From Psammoneis japonica (lineage: Eukaryota): DNA of 40,276 nt. How positions within the stretch are numbered: position 1 is the first letter of the stretch; every line of letters starts with the position of its first letter. The notes under the pieces were generated by a model that did no database searches, was not told the origin of the DNA, and worked only from the letters and a program-made list of their open reading frames with translations. Positions 1 through 39,827 of the stretch are shown piece after piece. The position numbers and the translations under genes are program-made. The stretch lies in contig QPGO01000063.1 in the NCBI GenBank assembly GCA_008632985.1, positions 372,001 to 412,276 on the forward strand, read 5' to 3'.

Positions 1-175
1 TGGTCAGTCTTCTTCCAACCAGTCTGTTCTCTTGTAAAAGAAAACTTTGCAAAATGACTTTCAGAGTGGCTTCCCATTGTTTGACATGCAAACCCAGTCT
101 GCAAGCATCAGTGAGAAGGTCAATTTAGATCTTGGTGAAAACAGCTGGACAAATGAACGTTGCAACACAGTGCAA

Positions 176-531
176 CAGTGTTTCCCGAATGTGCATTTTG
201 GTCGGACCAAATTGGCATTTTGGTCAAACCAAAATGCTTTTGTCGACCAAATTGCCAGACCGACCTGATCAATTTGGTTGACCAAATTGACATTTGCAAA
301 ATCTCGACCAAATTCATTTCATGCACATTTCCACACAAACAATGCCAACACAGCTTCTACGAAATTTGCATGGCATGTGTCGACATGCGCATTTTGCCAA
401 ATTTCCCCAACCAAAATGACATTTTTGGGAAACAAAATCATTTTGGTCGCGAGCATCAAATTTGTCAACAAACTTGGTCTGACCAAAATGCCAATTTGGT
501 CGACCAAAAAATGCACATTCGGGAAACACTG
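176..531. mobile_element. Non-autonomous DNA transposon (MITE-like) with ~55-bp terminal inverted repeats and CAGTG termini (hAT-like)
   Basis: Left end CAGTGTTTCCCGAATGTGCATTTTGGTCGGACCAAATTGGCATTTTGGTC is the reverse complement of the right end (...GACCAAAATGCCAATTTGGTCGACCAAAAAATGCACATTCGGGAAACACTG). Interior has many TTGGTC/GACCAA subterminal repeats. No target-site duplication is visible, so the superfamily is tentative. Confidence 0.75.
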
Positions 532-572
532 ATGGGGGGGGCAAGTGGCACATTGCCATTTTCTAAGAAAAA

Positions 573-756
573 TGAATGAATGCTGCCATGACAGCTGAGA
601 ATTGGGTGCAAGACAAGACAGAGTGTTGAACAGCATCAACAGGTTCTAGAATTGTGAGATGTTGCGCTGCTGGGGCCACTGAACAAGCGACAGTGGACCA
701 ATCGCCAACAGCACTTAAACTGCCTGCATCCGTGACAGTGCATCAGCATTTGTTCA
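573..756 (-). repeat. 3' LTR of the copia element (184 bp)
   Basis: Gap-free direct repeat of 7490-7673 with 17 mismatches by manual alignment. Begins TGAA, ends TTCA. Confidence 0.95.
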
Positions 757-766
757 GTCCCCTCGA
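757..766 (-). promoter_or_regulatory. Polypurine tract (plus-strand primer) of the copia element
   Basis: Minus strand reads ...CGAGGGGAC immediately before the 3' LTR. Confidence 0.6.
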
Positions 767-907
767 ACTGACGCCAGCTCCGCTCGGGTCAGATCGACAG
801 ACAAATGCAACCTGATGCTGCCCCATTCCAGGGCAGCAATTGCATTTTGGGGGTGGGAAAAAGCCGCACCTATGCGGCAAACCCGTTCGGTTTGTCCCCT
901 TTGGGGC

Positions 908-3900
908 TCACCACAGGATGTGACTTATGATTTCCCGGAGCTTCGGCCCAGGCAACAACTTGGTCAGTGCATCCGCTAGATTCGTGTGTCCATCTTCCCA
1001 AGCAATGCGCACTGTTCCAGCGGCTTGTGCCTCACGAGTCCTGTGATGGGCAATTGCATTGTGCTTCTTCTTCAAAGTGGACTCTGGTTTAGTTGAGTTC
1101 TTGAAGACAGCTTCATTGTCGCAGAAAACGTCAGTGGCCCCATCCATGGGGATTCGAGCATCCGAAGCTTGCAACGCAAGGCTTCAATTTGCTCCACTGC
1201 AGTCTTCACAGCCACGAACTCCGACCCAAAAGCAGAGGACTCTACGGTGTTCTGCCGCTTAGAGTGATGCAAGATGGGCACTTGTTGGATAAAGATCAGG
1301 AGACGGGTTCCAGTCCCAGGTGGGACTTTTTGTGACATTGGGCCCGCAGAATTCTGCGCGCGAGCTCCGCAGCAAAATTGTTGAGCAATGGACACATGAA
1401 TGATCGCCAACAGAAAAAGAGGCAATTTTGCGAACGCATCTCCTCCTCCACACTTGAAGTACATTCTTTGCGGCATGCCCGGGCAAACTCTTTAGACATT
1501 AAAGAACACACCCAGCGCATTTTTGTTGACGTGAGTGCAGATGACAGAAAGCCTTTGGCTTCGCAAAACAGGCAGTGTGGAACAATTTTTTATAATAGAA
1601 CACGTAGAAATGTACGTGCAAAACATGCGACGGATGATAAAAAATGATTGTGTCACAGTTCAGTGGCACGAGGTCCCACCTGGAGCTGGAACACGTCAGG
1701 ATCCCAGTGTGGGACCTGCGCGTCACACGGCATCCGGCGTGATCAGCATCGACAAAGCAAGCAGCAGTCACGTCATTCCTGCGTGCCTCCGGCACATTCG
1801 GCGGCATTGGTTCAGCCGCGCCAGGGTGACATTCTTCCCAATCACACTTGGTGAAGCGACTCTCATCAAAGACGGGCTCAGTGTTGTCGAACACCAGCGC
1901 AGGCAGACTTAGAATGAGCCTTCAAGTGTGCAAAGACATGGAGCACCTTGTCCAGGTGTCCAACTCGTGGTGCCGCCAAGTGGGAGGACATGAGCGAAGA
2001 CAGCAACAAAAATGTCCACTCGCCCCAGTTCAACCACCCACCGCAGCACACCGACAAGGCCTTGACAGCAGTTGGCCGTTTTGGTGTTCAACTCAGGTGA
2101 GCCGTCCAGTTCAGGCCCACGTCCCGAGCTCAAGGGTGTCGACACCTTCGTCGGAAGACGCCTGTCAGTTTTCTCAAGCTCCAATTCAATGTCAGCCAAT
2201 GCCCTTTTGACACAAAGGTCAGAGGACATGGCCCAGCATGTCTTGCCATCCGAGTCAGACAGCTGGCACTTTCCAACCTGGGCGCCTGAGCACTCTTCCG
2301 GCTCGCAGACGCTTCCGTCCTTGAGCGTGTGCCTGGAGCTCATGTGATCCATGACCTTCTGAGGTTCATGGGAGACGCACAACAAGTCGTCCACATGGAC
2401 AAGCACATGTTCCCAGTGCTTGAAGCCATCCGGCTCAACCGCAGCCCGCATCCAGACATCCGGGTCAGCCTTGCAAGACTCGAACCCAGCGTCCCGCAGA
2501 GCAGCTGCCACATGCTCCCTAAATCTTGCACCTGAAGATTTGAGACCATGCAAGGCACGGACAATGATCACCTGCCTTCCTTCGTTCTGCTTCCCAAATT
2601 CCAGGCCAGCAGTGGTGTGACATTTTTCCTCAGTGTGTGCCTTCAAGCAGGCATTCTGAACGTCAGCGCTCAGGACCTCCAGGTCATTCAGAGCTGCTGT
2701 GGTGAATGCCATCCTAACGCCATCATGCGACACCACGCTGGAACATGTCGATTCCTCAGGTGGATCGGTTTGATGGCCTCTGGCCACGAACCTCGCTTTA
2801 CGTTGGAGAGTGCTCTTGATGTCAAAGATCACATGACAGTCAATGTGTTTGCACCCGACCGGCACAGTGTCGTCATCGCGGAATTCGAACGCAGGCATGA
2901 CGTCACGCATTTCCTTCTCGATGGCTTTGAACCAGAAGTCGGTCCCCGTTCTGTCATCTATCTCCACAGCTTCCTCAACAGATTTCGGGAGTTCAATTCC
3001 GAACTTGTGCGCACATTTCCAGCAACGCGACTTGACTTTCTTCAGGATCCTCGACCTGCAACGCAAGACGTCTCGGACCCACCAGTTGAAGGCTGGCTCA
3101 CTGGCTGCTTTGTTCGCTGCAGCGTGCTCAGCAACCTCGACTGGGTTGGACTCCTTCAAATCCTTGAGAGGAACCCAGGATGTAGTCCCATCCTTCCATT
3201 TGACTTGCAGGTCCCAGCCTGCTGTCGTCCTCCTGGGAGCACGCCTGCCAGTCTTGGTCGTCATGTGCCCATCATCGGCCGTTACAGCACGGGCATCACG
3301 TCGGTGATCGACCATTTCCTTCATGATCTGGTGGGCATTCCCTTCAGAGTCGATCTGAGCGAATGGGTTCTCTGCAATTACGTTAGCAGCACAGGAATCA
3401 GTGGATCCATCAGGGAATTCCACGTCGTAAATCCTCGAGTCTAGGACAGGGTTGTCGTTCCTAGTGCCGACAGGAACCCCGTCGCCATCTCGCTTGTGTG
3501 CAATGACCCTAGCATGAGTCAGCTCGCCTCCTCGTGGTAACATGACTTGAGCTGTGAGACATTCATCTAGCCCTTCCGGGGCACGCTCATCAGCTTCCGG
3601 TTTGGAAGCGTTGGGTTCCACAGGTTCAACGGCATCATCCCATTCGTCCATGAAGTCATCAGGGAGTTCAGGGAAGTCAGCACTGGCATCCTTTTCCGGG
3701 ATGCTAAGCCGTTTGATCAAAGCTTGATCGACCGATGCAAGATCCGTCTGGATCGCCGGAGTTTTAAGGTCATCCTCCGGCATGGCCCATGCATCCTTCC
3801 AGATGATGGGTTTGCCTGATTCGGGCAAAATGATGAATGCCATGTCGTCAGTGCAGTTGTCAGCTACTCCGAGCCAACGGCCAATGCACTTCTTCTCGTG

Positions 3901-5521
3901 TGGGAATTCCGCCACAGGCATGCAGTGATGCACAGGTTGATGCCAATCAAAGAGAGAGAGGGAAGAGATGTCGGGTGCTGAACCTGTCACCTCCTCTTCT
4001 GGGACCCGTCCTCCCATGTCCGACACACTGGTCGCAATCATGCGTCGGATGTCACATGCCCATTTGGCGCCACAGGACCAAAGTCGCCTGTGAGCGCCAG
4101 TCCGGCATAGAGTCACACGGACTCTTTTCTTCAACTCACGAATGGATGCCTCGGCTGGGTTCTGCCAGGGGCTGTGTGGGGTGGACACCTCCTGGTGCAT
4201 CCTGCATTCCTTGCAGATCTCCTTGGTCTGGCCTTCCACCATTTCCGGTGCGCCATCCGACACAAGGACCTGCGGCACGCCAACGTCATGCACAAATGAC
4301 ATGACGGCGTCTGGGTAGGTCCTGTTTCCTCTTCCAAGGATGGAACCTGTCACACCCTCTTCCATTGGTAAATGCGCTTCCTCCTGTCTCGCCATGCATC
4401 GATTTAACCTTTGAAAACATTTTGTCGGAGTAGAGTCGTCCCTTGATCGCAGGGAACTTAAGCCAAGGGGCTTTCTTCCGGACTTTCCGTTCAGATGGTG
4501 TGCAGACATTACGGACCCCTGCCTGGGTCGTCACTCTAAGGGTGTTCTCAGCGGCCGTCAGGCCAATGTTCCACCTTTTAGAGAGCATCTCAGGCGTGAC
4601 AGTCGATGCACGACTCGAGGTCGACAGTGCATGCACCTGTTTCCGCTCGGCACAATCCGGGTGGACATCTGGGTCATGCCGGTCGTGTAGCCCGTCTCCC
4701 TCAGTGTCGTTGTGGGAGACATTTGCCTGAGCAACCAGGCGGTGATACAATGAATCATCGTCATTGGCATCCACAATGACATTGTCATCGTGACAGGACA
4801 TTTGGTGTGAATGAATGGAGGCGACACACCTGGTCGCATTCATCATCGTCAACCGTCCGTCCGACTTTGCTGATCCTTGGCGCACACTGGCACATGCATG
4901 CGCTTCCTCCTTTTGCGCCAGGGCATCAGCAGAAGGCTCCCATCTCAGGGGTGATGTGAGTTCCAGCCGAGGGACATTCTCCAGATCCTCCTTTGTTGGC
5001 TTGTGTGAATCAAAGACTGAAGCAACACCTCGCACTCGCAACGGCATCCTGATCTTCGAGTCAGGAAAGGAAATGGAGTGTGTGCTGGTCGGATCAAACT
5101 GGCGAGGGGTGTCGTGGACAGTCAGCCCATTCGCTCGCAGTTGGTTGGGGCACAGGAGGGTGTCAGTCATCTTGTCCCCAAAAAACACAGCCTCGTGGAC
5201 CAGCAGCAGGTGTGGTTGTCCATCAGTTGGATCAACCCACATGGCAGCAGCCGTGCAAATGGGAATGTTTTCCATTGGTGCATGCTCTTCAGAGCAGGGG
5301 TGTGCCACGACAGTTCTGTCGATGTCAGAGTGCATCACAAAATTGGACCCAACAGCACACGTGTCAGCGTGCGAGTCCAAATCAGTGGTGGCTTCGTCAT
5401 CTGAATTTCCAGCAGATGACAAAGAGACATGTGTGTCTTTTGAGAATCGCCCAGATGAACAAACAGTGCCAGCAGGTTTAGTGACATCTGGTTCCATGCC
5501 TTTCTGTGCTGGCGCAACCAT
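908..5521 (-). pseudogene. pol: Copia pol (protease, integrase, chromodomain-like segment, reverse transcriptase, RNase H), frameshifted and interrupted by a MITE
   Basis: Protease LDSHADT. Integrase VSDGA...PHSPWQNPAE. RT KARFVARGH, DVQNACL, ALHGLKSSG, HVDDLL. RNase H FVDADHAG...RRSHTG, SKRQNTVESSAFGSEF, CDNEAV, NLADALTK. Split over ORFs 4286-5521, 1909-4509, 1499-1894, 1072-1476 and 908-1174. Confidence 0.93.
1302..1697. mobile_element. 396-bp MITE inserted in the copia RNase H domain
   Basis: 25-bp TIRs (GACGGGTTCCAGTCCCAGGTGGGAC versus reverse complement GACGTGTTCCAGCTCCAGGTGGGAC) and AGGA duplicated at 1298-1301 and 1698-1701. Removing it restores RRSHTGILIFIQQ. Confidence 0.88.
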
Positions 5522-6943
5522 TCATTCCTCCTTCTGAGGTTTCGCATGCGCACTGCGACCAAACTGGGTGCCTGCATTGGCGGCAGGTTTGTCAGGCTCT
5601 TCGGAGTCTTTTGGTGCATCAGTGGGCTGAGCAGTGGGCTCGGCAACAGCTGCTTTCTTCACAGCGCGAGTTTCGGCATCGACCGACTCAGCCTCCGAGG
5701 ATGCAGCAGCAGCTTTGCATTTCTTTTCGGCCTTCTTGGCATCACTCAGCTTTTGGACTTGCTCTCGTTCGGGACCGTCAAGAGCACTCCACTCTTCAAT
5801 GGGACAATGGCCTGCCCGGATCCTGGGCTTGTCCTTCTTAGGTTGGTGCTTCCCACCAGGGTTGCTGCGCCGATTGTTGTGGCGTTGGATGGATGCAATC
5901 CCGCGAGTGTCGGCATTGCGGTTCTTGGCATTCTCGACCAGAGTTTTCATGTGCTGCTGGCATGCCTCAAAGTCCACTAGCTTCGCAGGGTTGCCGTCCA
6001 CCACGCTCTTGCCAGTTTCCAACCCAGGGTCAGAGACACCCTTCAGAAAGTCAGAGACCTTCTTGGTCTCGGCCACTGGTTCATCAAGCTCAGACAAGTC
6101 GTTGTGAGCCTTTTGATGGCGCTGGGTGCACTGGTCAAATGTAAAATCGACCCCGTCCGGTGCACTTCGCGGCAGCAATCTGTGCACAAGCACGGTTCTT
6201 TCGGGCAGTGGCGGCAGCCGATCCTTCCGCCTGCCTCTCAAGTGCGAAGAAGGCAGTGCGACCATCGCGACTGCGATTGGAAGGTTTGACAAAAGCCCAC
6301 CCGGGCCCCCCTGTCACTGACTTCTTCAAGAGGTCATGCAGGCGTTGCCTGTCCTGCGCATGCTGAGCTCCTGCAAGGTGGGTGGCAGCAGTGAGGTCCT
6401 CGTCAATGGCAGTGCAGGCAGCAGCCAACATCTCAGTGGTGGCTTCTTCATGTTCCCCAGTCAGGCAGACAAGGGGAACTCCGGAAACGGCGCTGCGGTG
6501 GTGACGCAGTTCGGTCTCCAGCAGCTCTTGAAAGGCAGGCCAGTCGTGTGGGTTCTTGAGCTCCACGGCCGTTTTGGCAGCCGATTCGTCGTCCGAGTCG
6601 GCGGACTTGAATTGCTCCAGTTCCGTCAGACGTGCCGTCCATGTTCCAATGACGTCGCCAGCGAAGAGAGCAGCGGTCGGCTCTTGATTCCGAGCTCTGT
6701 GGCAGTCAATCCATGCACGCAGTGCCTTGAGCTTGCGATTCGCCAGGCATGGAAAGCGGACTTGGGGGTTGGCGGCGGCATCCGCGCTCTTCACAACACC
6801 TCAGTCATGTCGGCAATTTCCATCAAAGGGACCTGTTCCAGGTCCTCGATCGCAGTGAAGCCTTGGCGGGCTGTGCAGGTGCGCGTCTGTGCATTGCATC
6901 CACAATGCGTAAGACAGGCGGTGAAGGCTGCGGCAGCGGCCAT
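5522..6943 (-). pseudogene. gag: Copia gag, frameshifted
   Basis: ATG at 6943, then ORFs 6135-6794 and 5522-6292 with CoDi gag-like segments (GVPLVCL, DGRTAFFAL, FTFDQC...HQKAHNDL, KKVSDFLKGVSDP). Lies between the PBS and the protease. Confidence 0.85.
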
Positions 6944-7475
6944 GGTGTGTCAATGGCTGTTCGCGTTTCGACGCGTGAGCATCCACTTGTGTGAGTGGAG
7001 GAAAGGGAGAAAAATGTGTGGTTCTCATGCCGATTTGGCGGTTTCTACTTAGCGAACCCGCGAGCAGGCGGTGTTACCCCTAAGCAACAATATCCAACAG
7101 ACATGTATCCACATGTACAGTGTCTAAACAATTCGATAACGTATTTTGATTAATGAAATGTATATGATCAAATAACAGACCTCAATACATAAATCATTAT
7201 GTTATCTATATGACGAATGTTTATATGTCTTAGCCAACATATTCCATCCACCTGATCAAACATTTCGTATACTAACGTCATGTCTAACGGATCACAGCTC
7301 TGGTCTCCAAGAGCATATCGTTCATATCCATGAATATTGATATATATAAAGGACTCAGCGATTACGCGAGCAACCATGGGACCAACATGGCGCTTGCCGC
7401 AAAAATCGATCGATCGCAACGATGCCGTCGTACCGTTCGCGATGCCCGTTCCAGGCGATGAACATCATAGTGTAT

Positions 7476-7486
7476 TGGCTCTGATA
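7476..7486 (-). promoter_or_regulatory. Primer-binding site, initiator tRNA-Met type
   Basis: Minus strand TATCAGAGCCA three bases inside the 5' LTR, matching the core of the canonical TGGTATCAGAGC PBS. Confidence 0.75.
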
Positions 7487-7489
7487 AAG

Positions 7490-7673
7490 TGAATAAATAC
7501 TACCATGATAGCTAAGAATTGGGTGTAAGACAAGACAGAGTGTTGAACAGCATCAACAGGTTCCAGAATTGTGAGATGTTACGCTGCTGGGGCCACTAAA
7601 TAAGCGACAGTGGACCAATCGCCAACAGCGCTTAAACTGCCTACATGCATGACAGCACATCAGCATTTATTCA
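7490..7673 (-). repeat. 5' LTR of the copia element (184 bp)
   Basis: Direct repeat of 573-756 with a perfect 9-bp terminal inverted repeat TGAATAAAT...ATTTATTCA. Confidence 0.95.
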
Positions 7674-8439
7674 AAAATTCACTGTTTGAGAATTCACAGA
7701 GATTTTTTGTCATTGATTGTCCCGTGTTTTCAAATTGTCCATTTCTGATTTGTGACAAGCACCTCCATGTAAAATGCAAGTGACAAGGCAAAACAACAAC
7801 AAACAAGAGCTTGCAGGCCCACATCATTCAATGTGAGTGTGCATTGTGAACTTGTCATGCTGCTGTTGCATGAGACAATGGCCAAATGACTGACTTGTTG
7901 CACAAGTTGGATGCCAAAAAACTCTGCAAATTTGGTGCACCACCGTGTGGAATTTCGCTGATGACCAGTCTGTCCTCTTGGAGCAAAAAAGGCCCTTCTT
8001 GCAACACTGGCAATGGTGTTCAGAGCCATGAGTCTGGCAAACAGAGGCACAACAGCACATCAGTTGATGATGGCAGAAGACAAAGAAAGAAGTGTTGGAG
8101 CATAAAAAAACTTGTCAATTTTGGAAACAAAATCAACTTTTGCAGAGACATCAAAATGCACCTGAGGCCATTCAAATCATCAAAAGTGAAGTGTTTGCAT
8201 TTCCTCTGCTGTTGCATCAACACACCAAGTCACACAACCTCTCACTCTCATCATCTCAACATGTCACACTACAACCTCTCACTCATGATCTTAACATGTC
8301 ACACACAGCTGTGCTCAGTGAAGCAGCTGCTTCTCTGCCATGTCCATGACAAAAGTGCCTGGCAGCTCTGACAAAGCAAACAAATTGGGTTTGAATCACA
8401 CAATGACTGGCTTTCAACCCAATTCAGTTAAAATGGATC

Positions 8440-19200: not shown

Positions 19201-19209
19201 CTAAAATGA

Positions 19210-27560: not shown

Positions 27561-28815
27561 AGCTGGCAATGACTGTGTGCACAGACACCGTGAAGGGCTT
27601 TTCAAGACAATTGGGCCACTCAAGATTTGTTGTGGGTCAGCCGCTCACGACCACAACAACAAAAAAACACAGACCATGATCTGGGTCACCCACCCATTTT
27701 TGTCCTTTCTCAAAGCAAAGAGGTGGAGCCACACAAGACAGCAGCATGGCAATGAGAAACATGCACTGGACTGCCGCAGAGCACCTGAGATTCATGACAT
27801 GAAATGCATGACACAAGAAGATGGTGAAATCATGACCAACATGATGATGACCAAGATCTCCCTGCTTTGCAAAGTGTTGGATCACACCACCTGGAGCTGA
27901 AGGATCCTCCTGTTGCTGGGAGACCCCCTGCTGATGTTGTCTGAATGTCGAGCTTTGTGCAGAAGGTGTTGAGGCATCATGTTCAACACTTTCACATCAG
28001 CCACCTCAACCTTCTTCATCACAACACCATGCTGCACCATGTTCCCTCTAAAGGTTCTGATGAAATTCACTGGGTGAAAGGAAACCTGGGATGGCTGTGA
28101 GACTTTGCTCCTCAAGCATGTGTTGTTCATCCAGAATTTTTGGCATTGGCTCATCACGCGCTGCTGCAGCAAAGGATGACAGCCCAGCTCTCCTTTTCCT
28201 CATTTTGTCTGGAAATTCTTCTGAGCATGTGGCAACAAATGGAGGGATCATTTGCAAATGAAGCACCTGATTTGGACAGGGAAGTCACCTGTGCCCAGAT
28301 GGCCAATGATCTGCTGCTGGAAAAAGCACATTTGAAGATTGAGCCAGGTCATTCCATTGTGGACACTGGAGGGAGCAGATGACAGCAGGAACAATTTGAC
28401 ATGATGTGACATGCCTGACTTTGAGGCTTCTTTGAGGTTGTGCTTGCTGGCTGTTTCGCAAAGGTGCTGCAGCAGGGATTTGCCACTTGTCAAGTTCTGC
28501 AGCCACCCAAGGGAGCCATGACCGAGAGTGTGGAGGACAGCGCCCCACCACCCAGTCGATGACATGAGCCATTGCAGGAGCATGTTGGGGCACAAAGGGC
28601 ATGCATGCCTGGTGGAGAACAAAAGAAAACAATGATGATTGATGGCAGGTCTAGCTTGGAAACTGCCAAGGAATCTCTCCTCCTGAGAAAATTGAAGCAA
28701 GGACAAACTCGGAGCAAAGCGGTGCTGGAGATGGCACAGGAGCTTGTTCTGCTGGCGAAGCTGCAGGTTCAAGGTGATGAAAATGAGAACCAATGGAAAC
28801 CAGATTGTTCTGGGC

Positions 28816-29008
28816 ATCAGGCAAAATGAACACAAGATCGGTGAAAGGAAAAATGTGATGAGAGGAGACAAGCGAGGTTAGCTGGCAGTTGAGCAGCCGT
28901 CGATTTTGTCACCCATCAGAGTGCTGCACTGTGTTTTCCAGCGGGAGATTTTTGGTTTCATGAATCCAAACCCAGGAGAGTCGGCAGATTGCAGTTGTTC
29001 CAACATGA
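28816..29008 (+). repeat. Diverged ~190-bp direct repeat, copy 2
   Basis: Similar to 26845-27022. Confidence 0.7.
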
Positions 29009-29331
29009 ACATTCTCCGTTTACACAGCACTGAGCACACTCACAAAGCTGCATCAGACAAACATCAGGTGCTGAGCTGGATGTGGAATTGAAACGAACAC
29101 TTCACCATCTTCTGCTTGACTTCTTGGACTGCGACAAACGCACCGCGCGAGGGCGGCACGTGAAATGACGCAACGACGACAAACGAAAACCGCATGCACG
29201 TTCGGTTCGTTTACTGTAGGCCCTATTAGTTTGCAGCAGTGAGAAGAGTGTCAATACAATCCTGAACGCAACATCGCTGCTACTGCTTGAGAGCTGGTCT
29301 CATTAGGCTACATCTTTTCTTGTGACAGTGG

Positions 29332-30404: not shown

Positions 30405-31461
30405 CTACGTAAGATCGACATCGTCATCATCCACACCTCCGTCCTCGTCTTCAATCGACCTCTTCACCTTGACAAGCATGGATGTTTTCCACGGATCGAG
30501 TTTGGAAATTCGATCAAACTCGAAACAAGCCGTTGCAAACCCTTCACTGTCAAATCCCTCCACAGCCTCAATCAGCTGCACACAAAACTTGCCTTCACGA
30601 GACTCTCCAAAGGTATAATCCAGACTTTCATAACGAGAAACACATTGAGATGCAGCAATCGCGTCATTGTTGGCCAAGTGACAAAAGATGGCCTGCAGGA
30701 AGAACCCCTTGGCATTGTACTTTAACAAATTGTTATCCAAACAACGACGTCCCAAACCATCATAAATTTGCGCCGCACGCATCAAATCGGGAGGATCCAG
30801 CGCCGCCGAGCACAACTCGGCCACCTTGGCCAAGCACTGCGACGAGGCGCTGCTGGAATTCTCCATGCCATAGAGCTCGGCGGCTTGTTCGTACGATTCA
30901 ATCGCACAAACAATGCTGCTCTTTCCGTCGGAACCGGTAACGTCTTCTTTTTCAAACAACTCGGCGCATTCTTTCGACAGCTTGGCGGCTTGCAGCAAGC
31001 GACCGGCGTCCACCAACAAGGACACGGACGATTGGTATGCCGAAAGTGCTTCGCTGGGACTGCTCTTTTTGTAACAACCTCCTGGTGATATTGAATAGAA
31101 TAATTGCAATAATATTAGAAATCGACAGTATGTTTGAATAACAAAATTCAATTGAACACAACAGCAACATCATCTTCCTTTCATACTACTACTCACCCGC
31201 ATTGGATAGGCACTTGCTCGCTTCATTCAAATTCTTGAGCTTATCACGATACAGTTCTGCCGCCTTGACGTAGGCGTTTCCGGCTTCGTGGTGAAAGCCA
31301 CCCACCTTGAAGGCGTTGGCGGCCTTTTCGTACAGCTCCGCCGCGTCCTCGTATTTTCGTTCCTTGCTTGATGCCAACCACGTGGATTTACCAAGAGTCT
31401 TTTCGGCATCAGCCAAAAAGGCATCGCCCTTGGCCTTTTGTTGTTTGCCAATCAAGGACAT
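30405..31461 (-). CDS. SEC17: Alpha-soluble NSF attachment protein (alpha-SNAP/Sec17), exons 31461-31197 and 31081-30405
   Basis: KYEDAAELYEKAANAFK, NNLLKYNAKGFF, FGESREGKF, FDRISKLDPWKTSML and C-terminal DLT. Intron GTGAGT...CAG at 31196-31082 keeps the frame. Confidence 0.95.
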
Positions 31462-32510
31462 GGCGTGACCAAGGGGTAGGTGGGAGTGTCGGAGTGTTTC
31501 GGGCGGGGAAATGCCCACTCGAAATCTCAAAGGCATCATTATTTCATTCAATGCGAAGCACGCGATTGCGATTGTCGCGCAGAGGCTCACGGTGGAGTGT
31601 GCATTCCCTTTTCTCGTGACTGTAGATCTATGTTCATGCAACCATGAATGATTTCGACGCAATGGACAGCTTGACGAGTTTCATTTTTGGTATGCCAGTA
31701 GAAATTCAATATGTTTCTACATTCGACAGTTTCTCATACATGCGTACGAAAATCACGAACTCTGCGAGCTCCAACACGAGAATAACACGAAGCACGAAGA
31801 GGCATCGACAGAGCTAATGGCGTTGCTAATACACTGTGAATGCTGAGTGAAAATGCCAACACGTTATTGTCACATAGCATATAGATGATTGGTCTATCAA
31901 CAGACAAAATAAATCGCCTTCAAAGCTGGTCAGCAGCTTCAATGGACTGCACAGCTGTTTGCGTGTTGTCAGGTCGTCTGCGTCGCCCACTTTGAATCAT
32001 TCTCAGATCACAACCACAGCCAACTCCTCCACCAATGTTGCTGATATCTTCTCTATCAAGTTATTGTTCAATTCCACCAATGTTCTCTGCAGTAGAAGAG
32101 CAAATGACAAGACTTCCAGCTCGCCCAACAAGATGACAATGCCGCCGACTTGACAACGCTCCAGCATTTCTATTTCAGTCATAGATTTGTCATGTGACTG
32201 GTTAACATCCACAACCAGTGATCGTTTCAGAAGCATTGCTTGTTTGTGCCCACAAAGCAGAGCCATCTAAACTGCTGCTGCATGGAGAAAAGGACAACAA
32301 AGCAACCACTCGCAGTTCCTGCCACAGAGAGCAACATTTTCAGAGACAGCCCTCCTTGGGATCAGGCTAAATTCACTGTCATGCCACCAATTTAAGCTCT
32401 TCTCAGTTATCCATGCCGGTTGTGTTTGCCACAACACTGCTCAAGTAACTTCCAATGGGGCCAACGCGTCATTTGCTTTTCTTGCATCCACAGAAACACA
32501 TTCAAGGTGA

Positions 32511-32846
32511 GTCCTCCTTGGGCTCCAGCTAACTCCACCGTCATGCCACCACATTGGGAACTGCTGAGTGTTCCATACCGCATGCTAACGTCATAAAATA
32601 CCTCTAAAGATACTTCAAATAGGGCCAATACATCGTCACAATTCCAACACCGACCATTGCACGTCGCACCGGTGCGTCATGTTGACAAGTCCTCCTTGGG
32701 CTCCAGCCAACTCCACCGTCATGCCACCACATTGGGAACGGCTGAGTCTTCCATACCGCATGCTAACGTCATAACACCGCTAAAGATACTTCAAATAGGG
32801 CCAATGCATCGTCACAATTCCAACACCGACCATTGTACATACGTCG
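32511..32846. repeat. Tandem repeat, two ~178-bp units, plus a diverged partial unit at ~32351-32396
   Basis: GTCCTCCTTGGGCTCCAGC(T/C)AACTCCACCGTCATGCCACCACATTGGGAAC starts at 32511 and 32689. Confidence 0.9.
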
Positions 32847-34500
32847 TGTTGATGGGTCCAACGGCGTCTTTTCATGGCGAAACAAAACCCCTGCAACTCT
32901 GTCACGACCGGTCATTTTATTGAACCAATTGTCAGCAATGTTCTAAAACTCCGTGGTAAGGGAGATGTGATGTGGCAAGATAGCGTCAGAGTACAAACAA
33001 CGCCGTCGTATCATCACCATTGTGAGTGCGGCATGCACGGGTAGGTCGCCGTACAAATTTGAATGAGCTGATGGGTCCAACTGCCATTTCAGTACAAACT
33101 AACGTAGAAACTTGCATGCACAGATCTACACAACTTTGCACTGGCACACCAAAAATGAACTCGGCAAGCTGTCCATGTTTTCGATCACTTTTCTGGAGCT
33201 CTGCTCCTCTCACATTTTCTAGAAACACTCTTTTGTGCAAGGCGTTGCCATTCACTGGCTTGTCACAGCTTGTCTTTCCTGTCCAAAAGAGAGTTGTTCA
33301 CCCCCCGCCCCCAGCTGCTTTCACAGGCAAGACCTTCTTTTCTCTCTTTTTTTTTTGTCAGTCATGGGCAGCGCTGGTGAGTGCATGGTTTCAATTGATG
33401 TGCTGTTTTTGCACTTTCTTGAAAAAGCTCACCAGTTCTTCATTGTCTGTTTGTTGTGCCACAGGGCAACATGGCACCAACAACTGCATCATGTTGAGAG
33501 GTGTCTCCAGCAATGCTGCCTTCTTGGCAGGAGCACGAGTGCAGCACAGCTGCAGTTTGTCAAACACTGTGTGGCTCTGAGCTGAACATTCTTGACCTTG
33601 GTGCATGGATGACATTGCAGTTGTTTTTTTAAAAAAAGAAGACCATCATGGCAATTGCACATCCACAGACACTTTCACCAATGCCACCATGAAAGCTTGA
33701 AAAAAATTGCAGCAGTGCTCCTCCTCTTGTTTTTCAAAAAATGCAAGGATTCGAGAGGGCTGAGGATGGGTGAGTGCAAACAGTCAATGAATGACAAGTC
33801 CCATGACATGAATTGGCAAGTTCAAACATGAGAGGCACTGGCATGCTAGAGCCAATGTTGTCAGTCCACACTTGACCACACCGTTGCTTGGCTTCTCCAA
33901 CTTTTGCCGCAAGGGCAATGGAGCTGTCAATCTGATCTCAATTTGCCTGAGTTCAAGCAACAACTCAACCTCAATGAGCTTGCATTCAAGTGTGGATTCT
34001 TGCCCAAACAGAGACCAACTTATCCTGAATCCAACGGCTTAGATGGGCAAGCATTCAAACAACACTGCTGATGTTTTTGCAGGCAAGAAGTGAGCCCCCT
34101 TGCTTTGAGGCTTTTCAATGCTCAACGAACTTTGAAACAAGAGGCAATCAAAAAACAGAGATGAGGTCTGAAATTAAAGAGTTTGCTTTTGCAGTTCATC
34201 AACTGTAAAATGCTTTTAGCCAGCACAAGAAAAGTGAAGTTGTGACAGCACAAAGAGTGGCAGGCCAGTTGACTCACAACTTTGCCATGCAAGAGACTGA
34301 TCCAAACATGAAGAGGATTAAACATTGCTTTGTCTGCTTCTTGCACCAGGCATGGTGCCCAAACCAAGGTAAAACTGCAGCTGCATGTGCATCAGCCCAC
34401 AAGAAGCCCCAGAGGCACACTTGTGTCTGGCTGGATCAGAGTTGCTGTCACTTTTGTTGTTTCCATTCACAATGGCCACACAAAACTGGCCAAACAAGGT

Positions 34501-36375
34501 TTAGTCTGCACTTGACAGTTTTTTCTCCAAGATGTGCAATGCAAAATGAGCTGTTGAAAACTTGGTCCAGGCAAGAAATGGCCTCCTGGTGACAAATGTG
34601 GGAATTGGCACTGGAGGAGGAAGTGCAAATGGGGCCACTTTCATTTTCTTTCCTTCCCACAAATCATCTCTGCCTTCTGTCTTTGGGAATGAAACTTGCA
34701 CTGCAGCTCCCATGCTGAAAAGGCAGTTACATCCTGCACCAAGCTCTGCTTTAAAACCAGAGCCAATGACAACTTGTGCTTTGAGATGTGCAGTTAATTT
34801 TGCAGTGAAATCGAAGGTGAGAGTTCCGAGTTTGGTGCCATTTGGGGTGGTCATTGGAACCTCCTCACTTTCTTCTAAATCAAGAATGTTGAATGGAAAT
34901 TCCTTTTCCAACTCTGCCTTTGCCAGCGCTTTGCTCTTCACAAAACATTCCTTGACAAGCTGTCCGCAAAAGTTGTGGAGGTTCTCACGAGCATTGTCAT
35001 GGAATGCATCGACTTGGGAATCAACACACAGCATTTCAAAGATGAACATTGGTGAACTGTCCACAGCAAGGGTGCACTGATCCACAGAATTGACACATCC
35101 AACTTTCGTGATGAAGGGCCTGCCATCCTTGAGAGTGCCAACAATCACGTTGTCTGCTTCTGCATTCAGATCAAGAATGTTGAGACCCATCACCGCAAGA
35201 TTGTAGACAGTGGTTCTGCTGGGTGAGGCATTTTTGGTGAAATCACTGGCAGTTTCATTCCTTGTGTCAAATTCAAAGTCTTGACCTTCATCGTGATGGT
35301 GTTGTCAACAACCCTGAAGACTTCCCGCACAAAAACCAAGGAAGAGTTGAAGGTCTTCACAATGACCCCATCTTTCAATTTTGGACCAATTGGAGAAATG
35401 ACTGCAGTTGCCTGTTTGTTGTTAGAAAGGAAGAATTTGCCAACAGTTGCTGCAACAAGAGCAGTGCACTCAACATCTTCTGGCAGATTGCGGAATGAAA
35501 TGCTGGTCACATTTGTTGCAGCATTGGCCAAAGAAATGTTGATGGGAGAGGGGACAACTTCTACACCACGTTCAAGAAAATGTGATGAATGACTTCTTGC
35601 CATCTCTCCCTCATGCATCTTGCAGCTCCTTCACAAATGTCACTGACAAACATCAGTTCTTTCCAAGCCACATCCAGCTGCTTGCAGAAGGTGGAACAAG
35701 CCGACTCAAGACTGAGAAAAATCACATCGACATCCATGCATGCCTTGTGTGGCTTTGGACCACCTTTCTTGCCACCTTTTCTGGTCGACAACTTCTTTCC
35801 TTGCTTTTTGTCAGAAGATTGTGTTCCTTTTTTCCTTTCTTTGGACCACCTTTCTTGCCGCCTTTTCCGGTTGACGACTTCTGTCCTTGCTTTTTGCTGG
35901 TGGATTTTGTTCCTTTTTCTGCTTTCTTCTTGCTGGTGGATGATTTAACGCTGGTGCTGGATCTCCCTCCCCTCCCCATCAAACTCCACAGCCTCATCCC
36001 TCCCAATTGTGTCTCAGGTCTGTGGCTGCTCTGATGGTTGGAGCAGCCATGACCACAAAGTCTTCCCTGATCACCTTGATTCTCCTAACTCCAAGCAGGT
36101 TCATTGCTTTTGGAATCGGTTTCATGCTTGATGCCAGGATCAGTGCCATTTCGAGTCTACAAGAAAGGGTCAAAAAGCATGTGTCAGAGTTGGCAGAGCA
36201 AGTTCATTTGTCAGAGAGCAGCCGCAGCATGTTCTTTGCCATCACACTTGTGAATTCTGCACACGCAGATTTGGAAAAGAACATCATGGGGCATTGGTCA
36301 CCAGGCCCTCAAAGAACATCACAAAAACTTTCATTCTCTTTGTTGATCAAGGACAGCACAGCAATTGTTGAATGA
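34501..36375 (-). pseudogene. Fossil of an unidentified protein-coding gene with a Lys-rich repeated linker
   Basis: Abutting, protein-like, Tyr-free minus-strand ORFs 35190-35618 and 34501-35193, preceded by a duplicated STxKGGKKGGPK segment (35755-35880). Boundaries approximate. Confidence 0.5.
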
Positions 36376-36916
36376 CAAACACAAAGCACTGACTTTCTGT
36401 GACACAAAAAACAAAATTGTGAGAATGTGCAGATCTTTTGATTTTGTGGGCCAGTGGAGGAGTCTTGTTGATCAGTTGACTTCAAAATTCAAAAAGCGCT
36501 CATCGGGAAAAAAGGAGTGCAGCATCAAATTTATGTGCTGTCATTTTCAAAAGCCTTTGATCAACACGAAGAAGCACCAGACCATGATTAGATTTCAAAA
36601 AGTGCTTGTTTTAGAAATGGATGCACAGCATCAAATTTAAGAGCTGCTTTTTGATGAACTTACAAATCAAGATTTTTTGGCAGAAAGATGACAGTTGACA
36701 ATTCAAAAAGTGTTTGCTTGCCAAGTGATGACATGTTCATTAATTGTGCAGCCACTGCACATGCTGCACTGTGTGACAGACAGCACATCGTCATCATGTG
36801 CTGCACCGGCAGGGCTCTGGAAGTGCTGTGCAGTGTGCACAACACATCATGCACACAGCATGTGTGATCATGGCATCCATCATTCCACCGCAGAAACAAG
36901 AGGCATCACACGCCAT

Positions 36917-36935
36917 GTGTGTGTGTGTGTGTGTG
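36917..36935. repeat. (GT)n microsatellite
   Basis: Run of about nine GT units. Confidence 0.85.
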
Positions 36936-37282
36936 CAGACACACATCATGTGCCCACCCTGCCCGTCCATCTGCCACCCATCCTTCGCCCACCGTCCGCA
37001 CCACAATCGCTCATCGCCATGGGATTTTCTGTCACAATGTTCTCGTTGACTCACAAATTAATTGCGTTGATCATTTCAACACTGTGCACTCTTGATGATG
37101 GTCTGTGTGCCATTTTTGCCATGCTGAACAAAGAAGCTCATGGGAAAGGGGGAGCTCATCTGGCAAGCTCCTGAGCAACAAAAACAAGGAAGAGTGTTGA
37201 GAAATTTCAAATGTGACAAAGAAGATCTCAGGGGGGGGGGGGGAGAGAAAGGGAGATGTGATGAGGTGTGACAAGCAGCCAA

Positions 37283-37700
37283 TCAATTGATGAGGAAACG
37301 CACTTTCTTGGGTGTGTGCACAAACTTGTGTGCACAAACTTGAGTCATTTGGCATTCTCTTTGGCACTCTCTTTGTGCACTGTGGGTGCTTGTGGGAGAG
37401 ACACATGGACAGTCAAATTGTTTCTGCCCTGGTTGGCAACTGGCAGGCACTTGAGTTTGAGTGCCTGCACACCTGGGAGTGCACTCATCTCTGGAGTGTG
37501 CACATTCAACCACTGCCCATGGTTCTGGTGGGTGACTCGGTTCACCTCAGTCTTTGTTGCCTTGGCCCACTCTTCAGCATCTGAACCTTTCACAGCACTG
37601 TGAAAAGAGAGCATGTGCCAGTGTTCTTTTGCTCTTCTGCTTGGTCATGGTGCAGGCTCCAGGCTCCAGGGTCTACAACACCACAGGCAGCACTTGAGTG
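37283..37700 (-). pseudogene. Probable copia fragment at the start of the RT domain
   Basis: VVDPG..., SAVKGSDAEEWAKATKTEVNR and CAHKFVHTPKKVRF resemble the pre-RT and RT N-terminal motifs of copia elements. Confidence 0.45.
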
Positions 37701-39827
37701 ACAAAAAGGCAGGCTGGCTGCACACCTTGTCCAGATGGGGCCTGGTCCTCTTCCACTCAGCACATTTGGCACATCAAAGTTGACCCTTGCTTGGCAGACC
37801 CTTTGAATGCACACTTGGAGGTGTTTCAACCAGAGAGAGAGAGAGAGCTGCAGGTTCAGGAGGTGCTTCAGGGGGCACGGGGGGCAGGAAATTGTTGTCT
37901 TCCCTCACAGGTGTGACTCAACTCATTGCATCTTGGAGTTGTTGGTCCTCTGCAAGCAGCACCAAATATTGCAGCTTGAAGTTTTGATGAACACACACTT
38001 CTCTGCTGGCTGCCTCTTTTTTTGTGCCTTCTGAAGGTGCTCTAGAGGAGCAAGCCACTCACCTTGCAGATGCACTGTTTGACCCTTCTTGAGTGGTGTG
38101 TGGGTCAACTGCTCAAGATGCAGTTGCTTCAAGTGACCAAGTGGATCCATGAAGCAGCAGTGAAAAGACTGTAAAAATCACATGATGCTGAGCAGCACAG
38201 CAACTCCAGTTTGAAAATTGAGGACTTGCAGAACTTTGCTTGATTGGGGGGCTGCCGTCACCAAGGTGACTTCTTGTCTGAAGGAAGAGCTGGGTTGAGA
38301 ACACAAGCTGGACATCTCCACATGTGAGCATTTCTCAAATGTTGGCAAGGCACTGGGCTGGGCTGGAGCCAGCAAAAATGTCTGCTTGGCAATGTCTGAT
38401 GGAGTTGGAAGTGACACCACAGATGTGCTCAGCAGCAAAAGAAACAGCTGTGAGCCATGATGAACTGTCAACTCCCCCCCCCCCCCCCCTTTTCAACAGA
38501 GTGATGTGTGTGATTGAGCACTGCTCTTCTCATGTTAAAGATTGGTCAAATCCTTCATTTGGCAAGAACTTCATTCTGATGACAAGTGTTGCCAGCACCA
38601 CAAAGCCCATGTTGTGGCTCACGCCCGTTCATGGGCATGCCTGAACAAATGAGTTGTCTTTGAACACGCTGCTGTTGGCAAGAAACTTTTGAGCAGCCAC
38701 CATGGTCTGGAGCATGCCTTTCAAATGCATGCTTTGCTTGCACATGGTCTCCACAAATGAAAAGTCAAATTGGTGCTCAGCCTGAACACACCCTCTGAGA
38801 TGTGGTTGACAAAGGCCTGTCCTCCCCTGAATTGCTTGGATGTGGCTTTCCCATGGGAGTCGCAGGCCCAGGAGACAAAATTCAAAGTTGTCAATGCTGA
38901 AAGCTTGACCCATTTGCAAATCTCTTGTTGATCTCAGAGAGATTGCTTGACTGAGTCAGCGCCCGAGCCTCTGAGGGTGACAATGCTGTGGTGCAAAACA
39001 GCATGTGCTGGTTTTTTTCTGGCCATCTGTCAATGCAAATGCAACAAGTCTGGTGGACTTTGCCTTGAAGAGGAGCCATTGGCAACAACTGACTCTTCAG
39101 TTCTGTGGACTTAAGTGTGATCTCCAAGCCTTCCATCAACTTCTTGGGGTCTGGCACCACAGTGCCACCAGTCTCAAGTGAGCTTGAACTCGGCATGGCT
39201 TGGTCTCTTAAGTGTGAAGACAGGAAGGGCAAAAGTGGAATCATCTGCTTTCCTGGGTTTGCTTCAGAGAAAATGTCTGCGGTGATGAACTTGGCAAGGA
39301 GCTTGACACCAGTGCACAAACTGGGCAGAATGGCCAATGGAGAGACAACACAGAGCTTGACACACAAGCTCCAGAGCTCTCTGAGGTTGGTTGCAATAGA
39401 AGTGCGCACAAAGGTAAACAGTTGTTTGTTCAAAGTGTTGTTTTCTAGAGAGCATGGCAAGGTCGTTGCGATTTGCAAAAAGCGATTTGAACAATGAGTG
39501 TCGATGAGTCTGGGTCGTCGTGATGAGCAGCGATCAAATAATGACGTTGAATCGTGACTCGACTACTCTGAGTTCGCTGACAGTTTCATGGTGAAGGCAC
39601 GATGCGACGGGCACAGGGATCTGCGAATGAAGACATGTGAATTGTGTAACTAGACATTATAGAAATGGACATGCTGCAGTAAGATGGCCGTTGACTCAGA
39701 GTCGGGAGACAGCACTCTAGGTGACCTAACGTCCTCCAGCAACAAATGACCGAATTTATGAGTCCATAGAACATCCCTTTCGAGATTCAGAACTGAAGCG
39801 CAACCGAGATTTGCTTCTTATGGCACT

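Follow-up and report, generated by a model that had tools for sequence, protein, structure and literature searches.

A probable footprint of region-limited TpA hypermutation in intergenic DNA of the diatom Psammoneis japonica

Kilobases of a nuclear contig of the diatom Psammoneis japonica are almost devoid of the dinucleotide TpA, which raises the question of what process could have removed it there and left the neighboring genes intact. The stretch analyzed, hereafter the window, comprises 40,276 nt (GenBank assembly GCA_008632985.1, contig QPGO01000063.1, positions 372,001 to 412,276, forward strand). Dinucleotide counting over the whole window returned 568 TpA, an observed/expected ratio (O/E) of 0.21, with CA at 1.61, TG at 1.59 and CG at 0.46. 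The answer proposed, to which a probability of about 0.85 is assigned, is that nuclear DNA between genes underwent a region-limited hypermutation of TpA to TpG or CpA, on the chromosome and after integration, superimposed on CpG decay.

Distribution and borders of the TpA depletion

An earlier note on this DNA had described a loss of TpA in five blocks with a return in the gene islands. This description was confirmed by O/E counts using the block coordinates of that note. The five blocks together contain 155 TpA in 30,490 bp (O/E 0.08) and the stretches between them 413 in 9,786 bp (O/E 0.57), the latter displaying, in order, ratios of 0.99 (7041-7673), 0.53, 0.61, 0.51 and 0.58. The features are as follows.

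1-7040: depleted block; TpA O/E 0.15, CpG O/E 0.71 (mild reduction)
1-571, no strand: TpA-poor flank on the left side of Copia; 4 TpA in 571 bp
173-534: MITE-like inverted repeat; arms 173-290 and 456-534
572-756, minus strand: 3' LTR of Copia, hypermutated copy; 2 TpA
911-6949, minus strand: Copia polyprotein (gag-protease-integrase-RT-RNase H), full-length but dead; at least 9 frame pieces
7041-7673, minus strand: spared part of Copia; 5' LTR (7486-7673) and non-coding leader
7674-11880: depleted block of no identified origin; TpA O/E 0.04, CpG 0.10, TG 1.94, CA 1.80
11881-14699, no strand: gene island; TpA 0.53, CpG 1.05
12124-13203, plus strand, and 13257-14600, minus strand: orphan reading frames in this island
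13097-14578, minus strand: duplicated orphan gene, copy 1; 1.48 kb, 90.4% identical to 21413-22859
14700-21410: depleted block; TpA O/E 0.05, CpG 0.12; fills exactly the space between the two orphan-gene copies
21413-22859, minus strand: duplicated orphan gene, copy 2; TpA normal
23170-29200: depleted block; TpA O/E 0.05, CpG 0.23
23667-24547: tandem array, 290 bp x 3, within the preceding block
30405-31680, minus strand: alpha-SNAP housekeeping gene in two coding pieces; PF14938, E=2.8e-67 and 2.3e-16
33100-39600: depleted block; TpA O/E 0.09, CpG 0.21
35753-35928: tandem repeat, 86 bp x 2, within the preceding block

The longest TA-free runs extend up to 1,272 bp and the block borders are step-like. 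Near 7041, two TA (6142 and 6910) precede a stretch that starts at 7046 and has about one per 10 bp; near 11880, it is absent from 10617 to 11889 and then returns about once per 15 bp. These borders demonstrate that the hypermutation ceases within approximately 100 bp. As a control for chance, the lowest TpA O/E among 294 one-kb windows of 67 related elements (from the best 80 of 554) was 0.39, and 31 of the 40 one-kb windows of the present stretch fall under this minimum. The other A/T dinucleotides are nearly constant between blocks and islands (AT 0.87 vs 1.00, AA 1.16 vs 1.08, TT 1.21 vs 1.17). CpG, a point little stressed by the earlier note, is also nearly lost in the four older blocks located beyond the Copia element (O/E 0.10-0.23). 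The counts thus establish that other A/T contexts were untouched and that the process overlies ordinary CpG decay.

The Copia element and its relatives

Among the element types named previously, one Copia LTR element, a MITE-like inverted repeat and tandem arrays were recovered, and no LINE was found. The Copia polyprotein matches RVT_2 (PF07727, E=1.2e-10, Pfam), runs colinearly with 19 relatives (1543-1937 aa) and is aligned by a profile built from 13 relatives over positions 1-1848. The same family profile covers the integrase region (positions 491-843, E=1.4e-88), for which the relatives display PF00665; a Pfam scan of 4286-5521 did not find the integrase (rve) domain. The direct terminal repeats (185-188 bp) have TG..CA ends and are flanked by a target-site duplication (AAAAA/AAAAT, 4/5 match); the stretches adjoining both LTRs resemble a primer-binding site, which we take to match initiator tRNA, and a polypurine tract. 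Frameshifts and CpG decay are present, as expected of a dead copy. From the spared part (TpA O/E 0.99, CpG 1.12) to the hypermutated polyprotein region (TpA O/E 0.15), GC rises from 0.42 to 0.54.

The two LTRs (572-756 and 7486-7673) are 90.4% identical in four letters and 99.5% identical in the purine/pyrimidine alphabet. Of 188 letters, 18 differ, and 11 of these are cases of TA in the spared LTR and TG or CA in its partner, the opposite case occurring once (binomial p=0.006), and the spared 5' LTR retains 12 TpA versus 2 in the 3' LTR. Counted as sites, 12 of 17 differences are exchanges of TA with TG or CA. Since 11 of 12 TA sites were altered in one LTR as opposed to about 2-3 other changes in 188 bp, a rough estimate from this pair would place TpA hypermutation at least two orders of magnitude above background. 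The spared 5' LTR and leader may also stem from recombination with an intact copy instead of targeting below the level of the element, and the LTR comparison consequently proves that one copy mutated relative to the other, not strictly that it did so in situ.

The polyprotein permits a second comparison. None of the 8 Tyr columns invariant among 13 relatives is kept in the element (5 His, 2 Cys, 1 Trp) and only 1 of 6 nearly invariant ones, as opposed to 175 of 194 other invariant columns (Fisher p=3.7e-8, invariant Tyr versus others). Over 1,097 aligned Tyr cells across 19 relatives, the element has His in 26%, Cys in 20% and Tyr in practically none, whereas the relative-versus-relative control has 50% Tyr and 4% His. 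The Lys, Asn and Phe columns show the control pattern. The two replacements, His (CA) and Cys (TG), occur about equally often (280 and 217 times across relatives, 16 and 17 times for P0121). The Tyr content is 0.21%, compared to 3-4% in intact relatives. The Copia polyprotein was killed through missense changes that turned Tyr into His or Cys, its TAA and TAG stops being erased in the process. Both products, and thus A>G as well as T>C, occur on one strand in the LTR pair and in the Tyr replacements, as the earlier note had observed.

That note had also named equally TpA-free consensus sequences and active copies of the elements as a finding that would speak against its proposal. All 67 metagenome loci of the family (from the best 80 of 554) are normal, with TpA O/E of 0.47-0.98. 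The search was biased toward intact copies, since Tyr/Phe forms part of one of the two peptide patterns used and no more than the best 80 of 554 matches were kept, so that the lack of depleted copies among the 67 says little on other diatoms. One relative (L067) has a CpG O/E of 0.01 with normal TpA; together with the TpA-poor Copia body, where little CpG was lost, it indicates that the two processes are separable. The flanking preference was the same in two independent comparisons: ATA/TAT and GTAC are favored, CTAG and TTAA are poor. A tetranucleotide 'gain' analysis against the relatives was too noisy to reveal which strand changes in which context.

Older blocks, spared genes and public reads

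Within the window the Copia element was hit and genes were spared, the other four blocks having no identifiable origin. A scan of 176 stop-free frames, each 70 codons or longer, from the four older blocks gave no match at the curated Pfam cut-off. Outside 911-6949, tblastn with the 19 Copia relatives and the 13-relative profile gave no convincing match (best E=0.002 at 15660-16019). Self-comparison of the window in the purine/pyrimidine alphabet did not find hidden LTR pairs; the sole extra pair was weak (26761-26999 and 28727-28979), a shuffled control being equal in short matches. The mass balance of these blocks can be summarized as follows: 223.7 TG+CA per kb are observed, with 195.3 predicted from CpG loss alone and 230.5 from the loss of CpG and TpA. 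The copies of the 290-bp array share about 90% of positions in four letters, or 96-97% in the purine/pyrimidine alphabet, and pairs of tandem copies differ by 2-6 TG/CA double exchanges, versus none among 100 mismatches of the gene duplicate. Such exchanges between tandem copies could come from CpG decay as well. For the four blocks, which have no surviving ancestor or relative, a mutational origin is thus suggested by composition, mass balance, tandem-copy differences and a few polymorphisms.

The duplicated orphan gene provides an internal control, being repeated but not hypermutated and displaying an ordinary substitution spectrum. Its copies contain 57 and 65 TpA, and their 100 mismatches include 42 transversions and 16 exchanges of TA with TG or CA, split 9 and 7. 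A search within a limited length range found no relatives of the 447-codon orphan frame. The alpha-SNAP gene, whose best named relatives are diatoms, also lies in a TpA-normal island.

Contigs built from the public run X1 show the same TA-free blocks, which argues against TA having been misread in the assembly. A 4,714-bp contig over 8119-12830 (depth about 60) differs from the window by 6 letters, and the contigs over 14336-17661 by 13. The depleted single-copy stretches have 28 TpA sites, and of the 17 differing letters listed for them 2 coincide with such a site (p=0.005) and a further 2 are TG in the window and TA in the run. Other copies in the run have TG or CA where the spared Copia leader of the window has TA (loose end at 7348). 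Run X1 is one sample, possibly the source of the assembly itself, with no library type on record; runs X2 and X3 have little coverage of the window. The four older blocks are mostly at single-copy depth in run X1. The latter observation, the scarcity of internal or protein homology in these blocks and the sparing of the 1.48-kb duplicated gene leave the 'repeat-targeted' part of the earlier proposal unsupported.

Candidate mechanisms and known systems

As judged from sequence comparison, the TpA depletion is a mutation footprint and not a native composition. A native poverty in TA, or selection against it, might be suggested by TpA being mildly low everywhere (0.5-0.6 in gene islands). It is contradicted for the Copia element by the 67 TA-normal relatives (from the best 80 of 554), by their higher Tyr content and by the O/E of 0.99 in its own 5' LTR and leader; dead frameshifted DNA, moreover, is not under such selection, and the probability of this reading is negligible. 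A sequencing, base-calling or polishing artefact, in which real TA, perhaps modified, is misread in the assembly, could imitate a random choice of TG or CA if a strand-symmetric TpA modification were misread on each strand, and run X1 may share its sample with the assembly. It is nevertheless largely refuted, and very improbable, as independently built contigs repeat the TG-or-CA choices over kilobases, the run contains TA-bearing and TG/CA-bearing leaders alike, and the element carries the frameshifts and CpG decay of a dead copy. ADAR-like A-to-I editing of RNA, or of cDNA, prior to integration has a precedent in the editing footprints known from mammalian retroelements. ADAR also prefers U before the edited A (bioRxiv 10.64898/2026.01.13.699255, cited throughout from part of its text). 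Editing of sense RNA should however yield TA>TG (Tyr>Cys) only, and His is as frequent as Cys; the LTRs should be identical at integration, and 12 TA sites differ; tandem arrays and flanking non-retroelement DNA were hit as well, and the window and run X1 differ at some TA sites. This explanation is contradicted and retains a very slight probability. GC-biased gene conversion and polymerase-eta-type error-prone repair (WA motif) each raise A:T>G:C, polymerase eta preferring A after T or A. Both are highly improbable given the essentially constant AT, AA and TT, the control-like Lys, Asn and Phe columns and the step-like borders; the constancy of other A/T contexts excludes gene conversion in particular. 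The context-independent spectrum that the earlier note regarded as fatal to its claim was not found, the change being restricted to TpA.

The LTR pair, the Tyr to His/Cys replacements, the TA-normal relatives and the constancy of other A/T contexts thus support the central claim of that note, a chromosomal process that acts on either strand of transposon DNA and replaces TpA by TpG or CpA. A polynucleotide deaminase of the TadA/ADAT2 lineage would deaminate adenine to inosine, which is read as G, and targeting would follow silent, DNA-methylated chromatin in preference to repeat homology. This enzyme class is our leading guess, held at slightly less than even odds. In the tRNA adenosine deaminases TadA and ADAT2-ADAT3, U precedes the target A (tRNA position 34), a likeness to the T before the adenine altered here; to our knowledge, these enzymes are not established to act on double-stranded chromosomal DNA within defined domains. 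The same TpA-specific transition could arise from thymine, a TET/JBP-type hydroxylase producing 5-hydroxymethyluracil (5hmU) that mispairs with G and gives T>C; TpA being palindromic, T>C on one strand is indistinguishable from A>G on the other. Dinoflagellate 5hmU may prefer TpA; 5hmU opposite A is only weakly mutagenic. A precedent comes from dinoflagellates, in which 5hmU made by a TET/JBP homologue is enriched on repeats and acts to silence transposons (PMC11572971, cited in part). Diatoms are not known to carry 5hmU, and the sole study of the TpA signature prefers, without a test, adenine deamination (bioRxiv 10.64898/2026.01.13.699255); the thymine route is considered unlikely.

That study (Mettrop et al., 2026) describes, in Bigelowiella natans, a hypermutation of integrated viral DNA that is confined to TpA and converts A:T to G:C, so that the statement of the earlier note that no eukaryotic defence with such a signature was described no longer holds. 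De novo A>G/T>C mutations were found there at TpA only, in a single-copy, silent viral insert, at a rate about 1000-fold over the rest of the genome; ADAT2 was proposed as the enzyme, its action on DNA in amphioxus and trypanosomes being cited (bioRxiv 10.64898/2026.01.13.699255). In both organisms TpA alone is hit, TpG and CpA are the products and TpA-poor, CpA+TpG-rich clusters result. The restriction to foreign or silent DNA seen in B. natans, whose clusters include reverse-transcriptase and DDE genes, may apply here too, and a single-copy target is possible in both. In the four older blocks, TpA is at most 0.25 and mean TG/CA O/E 1.6-2.0 over 4-7 one-kb windows in succession, inside the cluster cut-offs given for B. 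natans (Rho TpA at most 0.43, CpA+TpG at least 1.52, at least 3 consecutive 1-kb windows). As far as the part cited allows comparison, the cases differ in lineage (rhizarian there, stramenopile here), in target (giant-virus/virophage inserts there, a retrotransposon and intergenic blocks of unidentified origin here) and in degree (O/E 0.45 in the viral region there, near saturation at 0.04-0.15 here); CpG decay coincides and a flanking-base preference is visible only here, and the de novo rate measured there is replaced by an indirect LTR-pair estimate.

Ascomycete RIP likewise makes regional, dinucleotide-specific transitions on both strands and kills transposons after integration, but it converts C to T at CpA, creates TpA and stops, lowers GC and needs duplication. 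In the window, A>G at TpA removes TpA and stops and raises GC, with CA at 1.7; the direction is opposite (TpA O/E 0.04-0.15), the 1.5-kb duplicate was spared and the blocks are mostly single-copy. Decay of 5-methylcytosine at CpG in methylated diatom transposons shares the blocks and the TG/CA products but is unable to remove TpA. APOBEC3 and ADAR footprints in animal retroelements are also clustered, deaminase-type transitions that inactivate the element, but the targets are cDNA or RNA before integration and one strand is marked, whereas in the window the marks lie on both strands, the two LTRs are unlike and DNA outside retroelements is affected as well; neither sense-only A>G nor LTRs identical at integration, as ADAR would leave, were observed.

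A literature search found no report of a TpA-erasing signature in diatoms. As the B. natans signature was measured in 2026, the window is therefore a second, diatom case, and extends to an independent lineage a defence-like mutation process first measured only then. Its near-saturated footprint reveals features absent from the first report as cited here, namely the flanking-base preference, the step-like borders, the spared LTR and leader and the separability from CpG decay. In diatoms, which are ecologically dominant and include several genetically tractable species, transposons are known to be targeted by DNA methylation, so that a link between silencing marks and TpA hypermutation becomes testable. 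An adenine deaminase acting on chromosomal DNA would be new to enzymology and, in practice, of interest to base editing. It is a rather doubtful possibility that diatoms and chlorarachniophytes share an ancient TpA adenine deaminase, guided by chromatin or methylation to double-stranded chromosomal DNA; such an enzyme would amount to an A-to-G 'base editor' occurring in nature, which prefers ATA/TAT and edits silenced transposons and viral inserts alongside 5-methylcytosine silencing. For annotation, the erasure of TAA/TAG stops and Tyr codons makes decayed transposons resemble long open reading frames and evade domain searches; 41 frames of at least 150 codons are present within the 40 kb.

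TpA depletion across the window

Short gene islands alternate in the window with five long TpA-depleted blocks, given below with their observed/expected (O/E) dinucleotide ratios.

1-7040, no strand: depleted block, TpA O/E 0.15, CpG O/E 0.71 (mild reduction)
7674-11880, no strand: depleted block, TpA O/E 0.04
14700-21410, no strand: depleted block, TpA O/E 0.05
23170-29200, no strand: depleted block, TpA O/E 0.05
33100-39600, no strand: depleted block, TpA O/E 0.09
30405-31680, minus strand: alpha-SNAP gene in two pieces (PF14938, E=2.8e-67 and 2.3e-16)

The block coordinates proposed in the earlier note proved correct, with TpA O/E values of 0.04-0.15 inside against 0.51-0.99 in each stretch between (pooled, 155 TpA in 30,490 bp, O/E 0.08, and 413 in 9,786 bp, O/E 0.57). 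The near-absence of TpA is confirmed and lies far outside chance: 31 of the 40 one-kb windows fall below 0.39, the minimum among 294 such windows from 67 related elements. Within the blocks TG and CA rise to O/E values of about 1.7-1.9, AT, AA and TT are nearly constant, and each border is step-like, spanning roughly 100 bp at most. CpG is almost lost (O/E 0.10-0.23) from the last four blocks, hereafter the older blocks. The best named relatives of the alpha-SNAP gene are diatoms (Fistulifera, Mayamaea, Nitzschia and others, 66-70% identity), with a further match at 83%, and the window DNA is eukaryotic.

Contigs built from the public read run X1, whose library type is not on record, differ from the window by 6 letters in 4,714 bp over 8119-12830 and by 13 over 14336-17661, at a depth of about 60. 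They display TG/CA, not TA, over kilobases of depleted blocks and repeat the window's choice of TG or CA at successive sites. The sequencing artefact envisaged in the earlier note is contradicted by these contigs, X1 being possibly the assembly's own sample.

The Copia element

The sole block content with recognisable identity is a Copia retrotransposon, which makes up most of the first block.

572-7673, minus strand: Copia retrotransposon (LTRs and polyprotein)
572-756 and 7486-7673, minus strand: Copia LTRs, 185-188 bp (pairwise comparison)
911-6949, minus strand: full-length Copia polyprotein, colinear with 19 relatives of 1,543-1,937 aa

The element is flanked by AAAAA and AAAAT, and tract-like sequences, read by eye, adjoin both LTRs; the match of such a sequence is presumably to a tRNA primer site. 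The polyprotein is 38-47% identical to the best 13 of the 19 relatives. A profile built from these 13 matches over positions 1-1848, split over at least nine frame pieces, and the copy is therefore dead. Among the relatives, the Cyclotella cryptica protein P0140 (2,450 aa, E=6.9e-106) bears a BEACH-domain annotation; its gene model has probably absorbed a transposon. Directly left of the insertion lies a MITE-like nested inverted repeat (173-534), a 41-bp stretch of which is identical to 19205-19245 in the purine/pyrimidine alphabet.

The two LTRs of an element are identical at integration. Here they differ at 18 of 188 letters, 11 of which are TA in the right-hand LTR and TG/CA in the left-hand one, with a single case in the opposite direction (binomial p=0.006). 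The remainder comprises one TG<->CA double, two CpG changes, one other transition and one transversion. The right-hand LTR holds 12 TpA and the left-hand LTR 2, and their identity rises from 90.4% in four letters to 99.5% when transitions are ignored in the purine/pyrimidine alphabet. It follows from this asymmetry that TA was the ancestral state and that mutation at TA struck one of the copies once the LTRs had become separate sequences. As a rough estimate, change at TA sites is at least 100-fold in excess per site (11 of 12 TA sites against about 2-3 other changes in 188 bp).

The 5' LTR and non-coding leader (7041-7673) were spared both TpA loss (O/E 0.99) and CpG loss (1.12). Both losses occurred in the remainder of the element, which extends from near the start codon (6949) to the 3' LTR, and spared sequence gives way to mutated sequence between 6910 and 7046. 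The process raised GC content, which is 0.42 in the spared segment and 0.54 in the mutated one. This joint sparing and loss of TpA and CpG suggests that the process tracks chromatin that is silent and methylated. For the border of the spared segment, and for that border alone, recombination with an intact copy could be the explanation instead.

The encoded protein displays the same loss. Tyrosine codons (TAY) contain TA, and a single transition converts them to His (CAY) or Cys (TGY). None of the eight Tyr columns invariant in 13 relatives is kept in the window copy (5 His, 2 Cys, 1 Trp), as opposed to 175 of 194 invariant non-Tyr columns (Fisher p=3.7e-8); among six nearly invariant Tyr columns one is kept, the others being 3 Cys, 1 His and 1 Arg (CGT). 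Over 1,097 aligned Tyr cells from 19 relatives, which are not independent, the window carries His in 26%, Cys in 20% and Tyr in about none, against 50% Tyr and 4% His when the relatives are compared among themselves. Tyr content is 0.21% versus 3.9% in relatives.

Survival of TA depends on context: about 0-0.02 in ATAT and ATAC/GTAT, 0.02-0.10 in GTAC, ATAG/CTAT and ATAA/TTAT, 0.5 in CTAG and 0.25-0.72 in TTAA. The order is identical whether Copia is compared with its relatives or the older blocks with the gene islands, and 38 of the 52 survivors in the Copia body occupy resistant contexts. Since surviving TA are clustered (variance/mean 2.13, matched by 1 of 5,000 permutations), some short patches escaped. 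Within 572-7040 such patches occur at about 1591-1638, 3379-3568 and 4316-4579, the first including contexts erased elsewhere, as if locally protected. TAA and TAG stops were removed by the process as well, and 41 open frames of 150 or more codons remain as a result.

A TA-free state is not native to the Copia family, and native composition is contradicted as a cause, because all 67 metagenome loci of the family (from the best 80 of 554) have a TpA O/E of 0.47-0.98. The search behind these loci was biased to intact copies and says little on hypermutation in other diatoms. Three of these loci from other samples (L067, L053 and L047) are strongly CpG-depleted (O/E 0.01-0.32) with normal TpA, for instance CpG 0.01 and TpA 0.47 in L067 and 0.12 and 0.50 in L053; in them CpG has decayed with no sign of the TpA process. 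The window's Copia body has lost most TpA (O/E 0.15) and little CpG (0.71), so that CpG decay and TpA decay are separable.

The older blocks and targeting

We infer a transposon origin of the older blocks from their size (4.2-6.7 kb between genes), strand composition and CpG decay only, because a Pfam scan of 176 frames gave no match at cut-off, searches with the relatives and profile detected no homology to the Copia family, purine/pyrimidine self-comparison revealed no hidden terminal repeats, and depth in X1 is mostly single-copy. Among the element types named in the earlier note, the Copia LTR element, the MITE-like repeat and tandem arrays were recovered and the LINE was not found.

TA loss in these blocks is nevertheless read as mutational on three grounds. 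TG+CA amounts to 223.7 per kb, where CpG loss alone predicts 195.3 and combined CpG and TpA loss 230.5. Copies of a 290-bp tandem repeat display 2-6 TG<->CA doubles per pair, which could also arise via CpG decay, against none in 100 mismatches of a gene duplicate. Finally, polymorphisms separate the window from X1. Among the 17 differing letters listed for depleted stretches at single-copy depth, 2 sit on the 28 TA sites (p=0.005), making TA sites polymorphic hot spots; two further letters are TG in the window and TA in X1, and one pair forms a CA<->TG double. These differences (TA<->TG/CA at 9942, 15545, 15659 and 17978; the double at 11087-11088) may be allelic and created by the process, and hint at recent activity. 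Over Copia, the summed X1 depth is 6,000-53,000, which is not a copy number, in 9,580 pieces. Almost all differences there are transitions, each type of which occurs 186-211 times, compared with 9-17 times for each type of transversion. A loose end at 7348 reveals further copies in X1 with TG/CA at places where the window's spared leader has TA. At a gene-island edge, 4 of 7 differences between two copies of a ~175-bp tandem repeat (32348-32840) are TA<->TG/CA, and may be the fringe of the adjacent depleted domain.

13097-14578 and 21413-22859, minus strand: orphan-gene duplicate pair, 1.48 kb, 90% identical, bracketing a depleted block

The tandem orphan copies (frames of 447 and 336 codons, N-terminal hydrophobic stretch) bracket 6.8 kb of depleted DNA like giant terminal repeats; no relatives of the gene were found in the length range searched. 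Both are TpA-normal (57 and 65), and their 100 mismatches follow an ordinary spectrum, with 42 transversions and TA<->TG/CA split 9 and 7. Differences between the copies are evenly distributed over codon positions (33/24/31). The process had been described as repeat-targeted, which was not borne out: a duplicated gene is spared and the depleted DNA lies for the most part at single-copy depth, so repeat homology is not the cue.

Chemistry and related systems

His and Cys outcomes are near parity (280 vs 217; 16 vs 17 against the relative P0121 alone), and both strands were therefore hit, in agreement with the A>G and T>C changes previously noted on the same strand. Sense-RNA editing or editing of one cDNA strand is thereby ruled out, and ADAR/APOBEC footprints are contradicted. 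GC-biased gene conversion and polymerase-eta errors are contradicted by the tests, AT, AA and TT having hardly changed; the context-independent A:T>G:C spectrum that the earlier note had set against its own proposal was not seen. TadA/ADAT enzymes act on adenine preceded by U, and for this reason ADAT2-type adenine deamination is favoured as the likeliest chemistry, at a probability of roughly 0.45. Modification of thymine, a live rival to which we attach a rather low probability, would leave the same signature; in dinoflagellates, 5hmU made by a TET/JBP enzyme marks transposons and silences them (PMC11572971). Adenine deamination and the thymine route are not separable by sequence alone.

Fungal RIP follows a like logic, but its chemistry is opposite and, unlike the process in the window, it is repeat-dependent. 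The earlier note knew of no described eukaryotic defence with this signature. That view has been overtaken by TpA hypermutation measured de novo in Bigelowiella natans, whose signature matches, and the process in the window is classed as belonging to this very recently described kind. In that study (bioRxiv 10.64898/2026.01.13.699255), two viral inserts acquired 231 de novo mutations, of which 230 were A>G or T>C, every one of these on TpA; the rate was about 1000-fold above the remaining genome, and 11 of 15 lines were affected. The larger of the two targets is present as a single copy and is transcriptionally silent, and an ADAT2-type adenine deaminase was put forward by the authors without test. 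Full-text searches, which reached few subscription journals, found no report of the signature in diatoms. The window represents a second lineage besides B. natans; the process acts there on transposons, is near saturation, shows a visible dependence on context and is linked to CpG decay.
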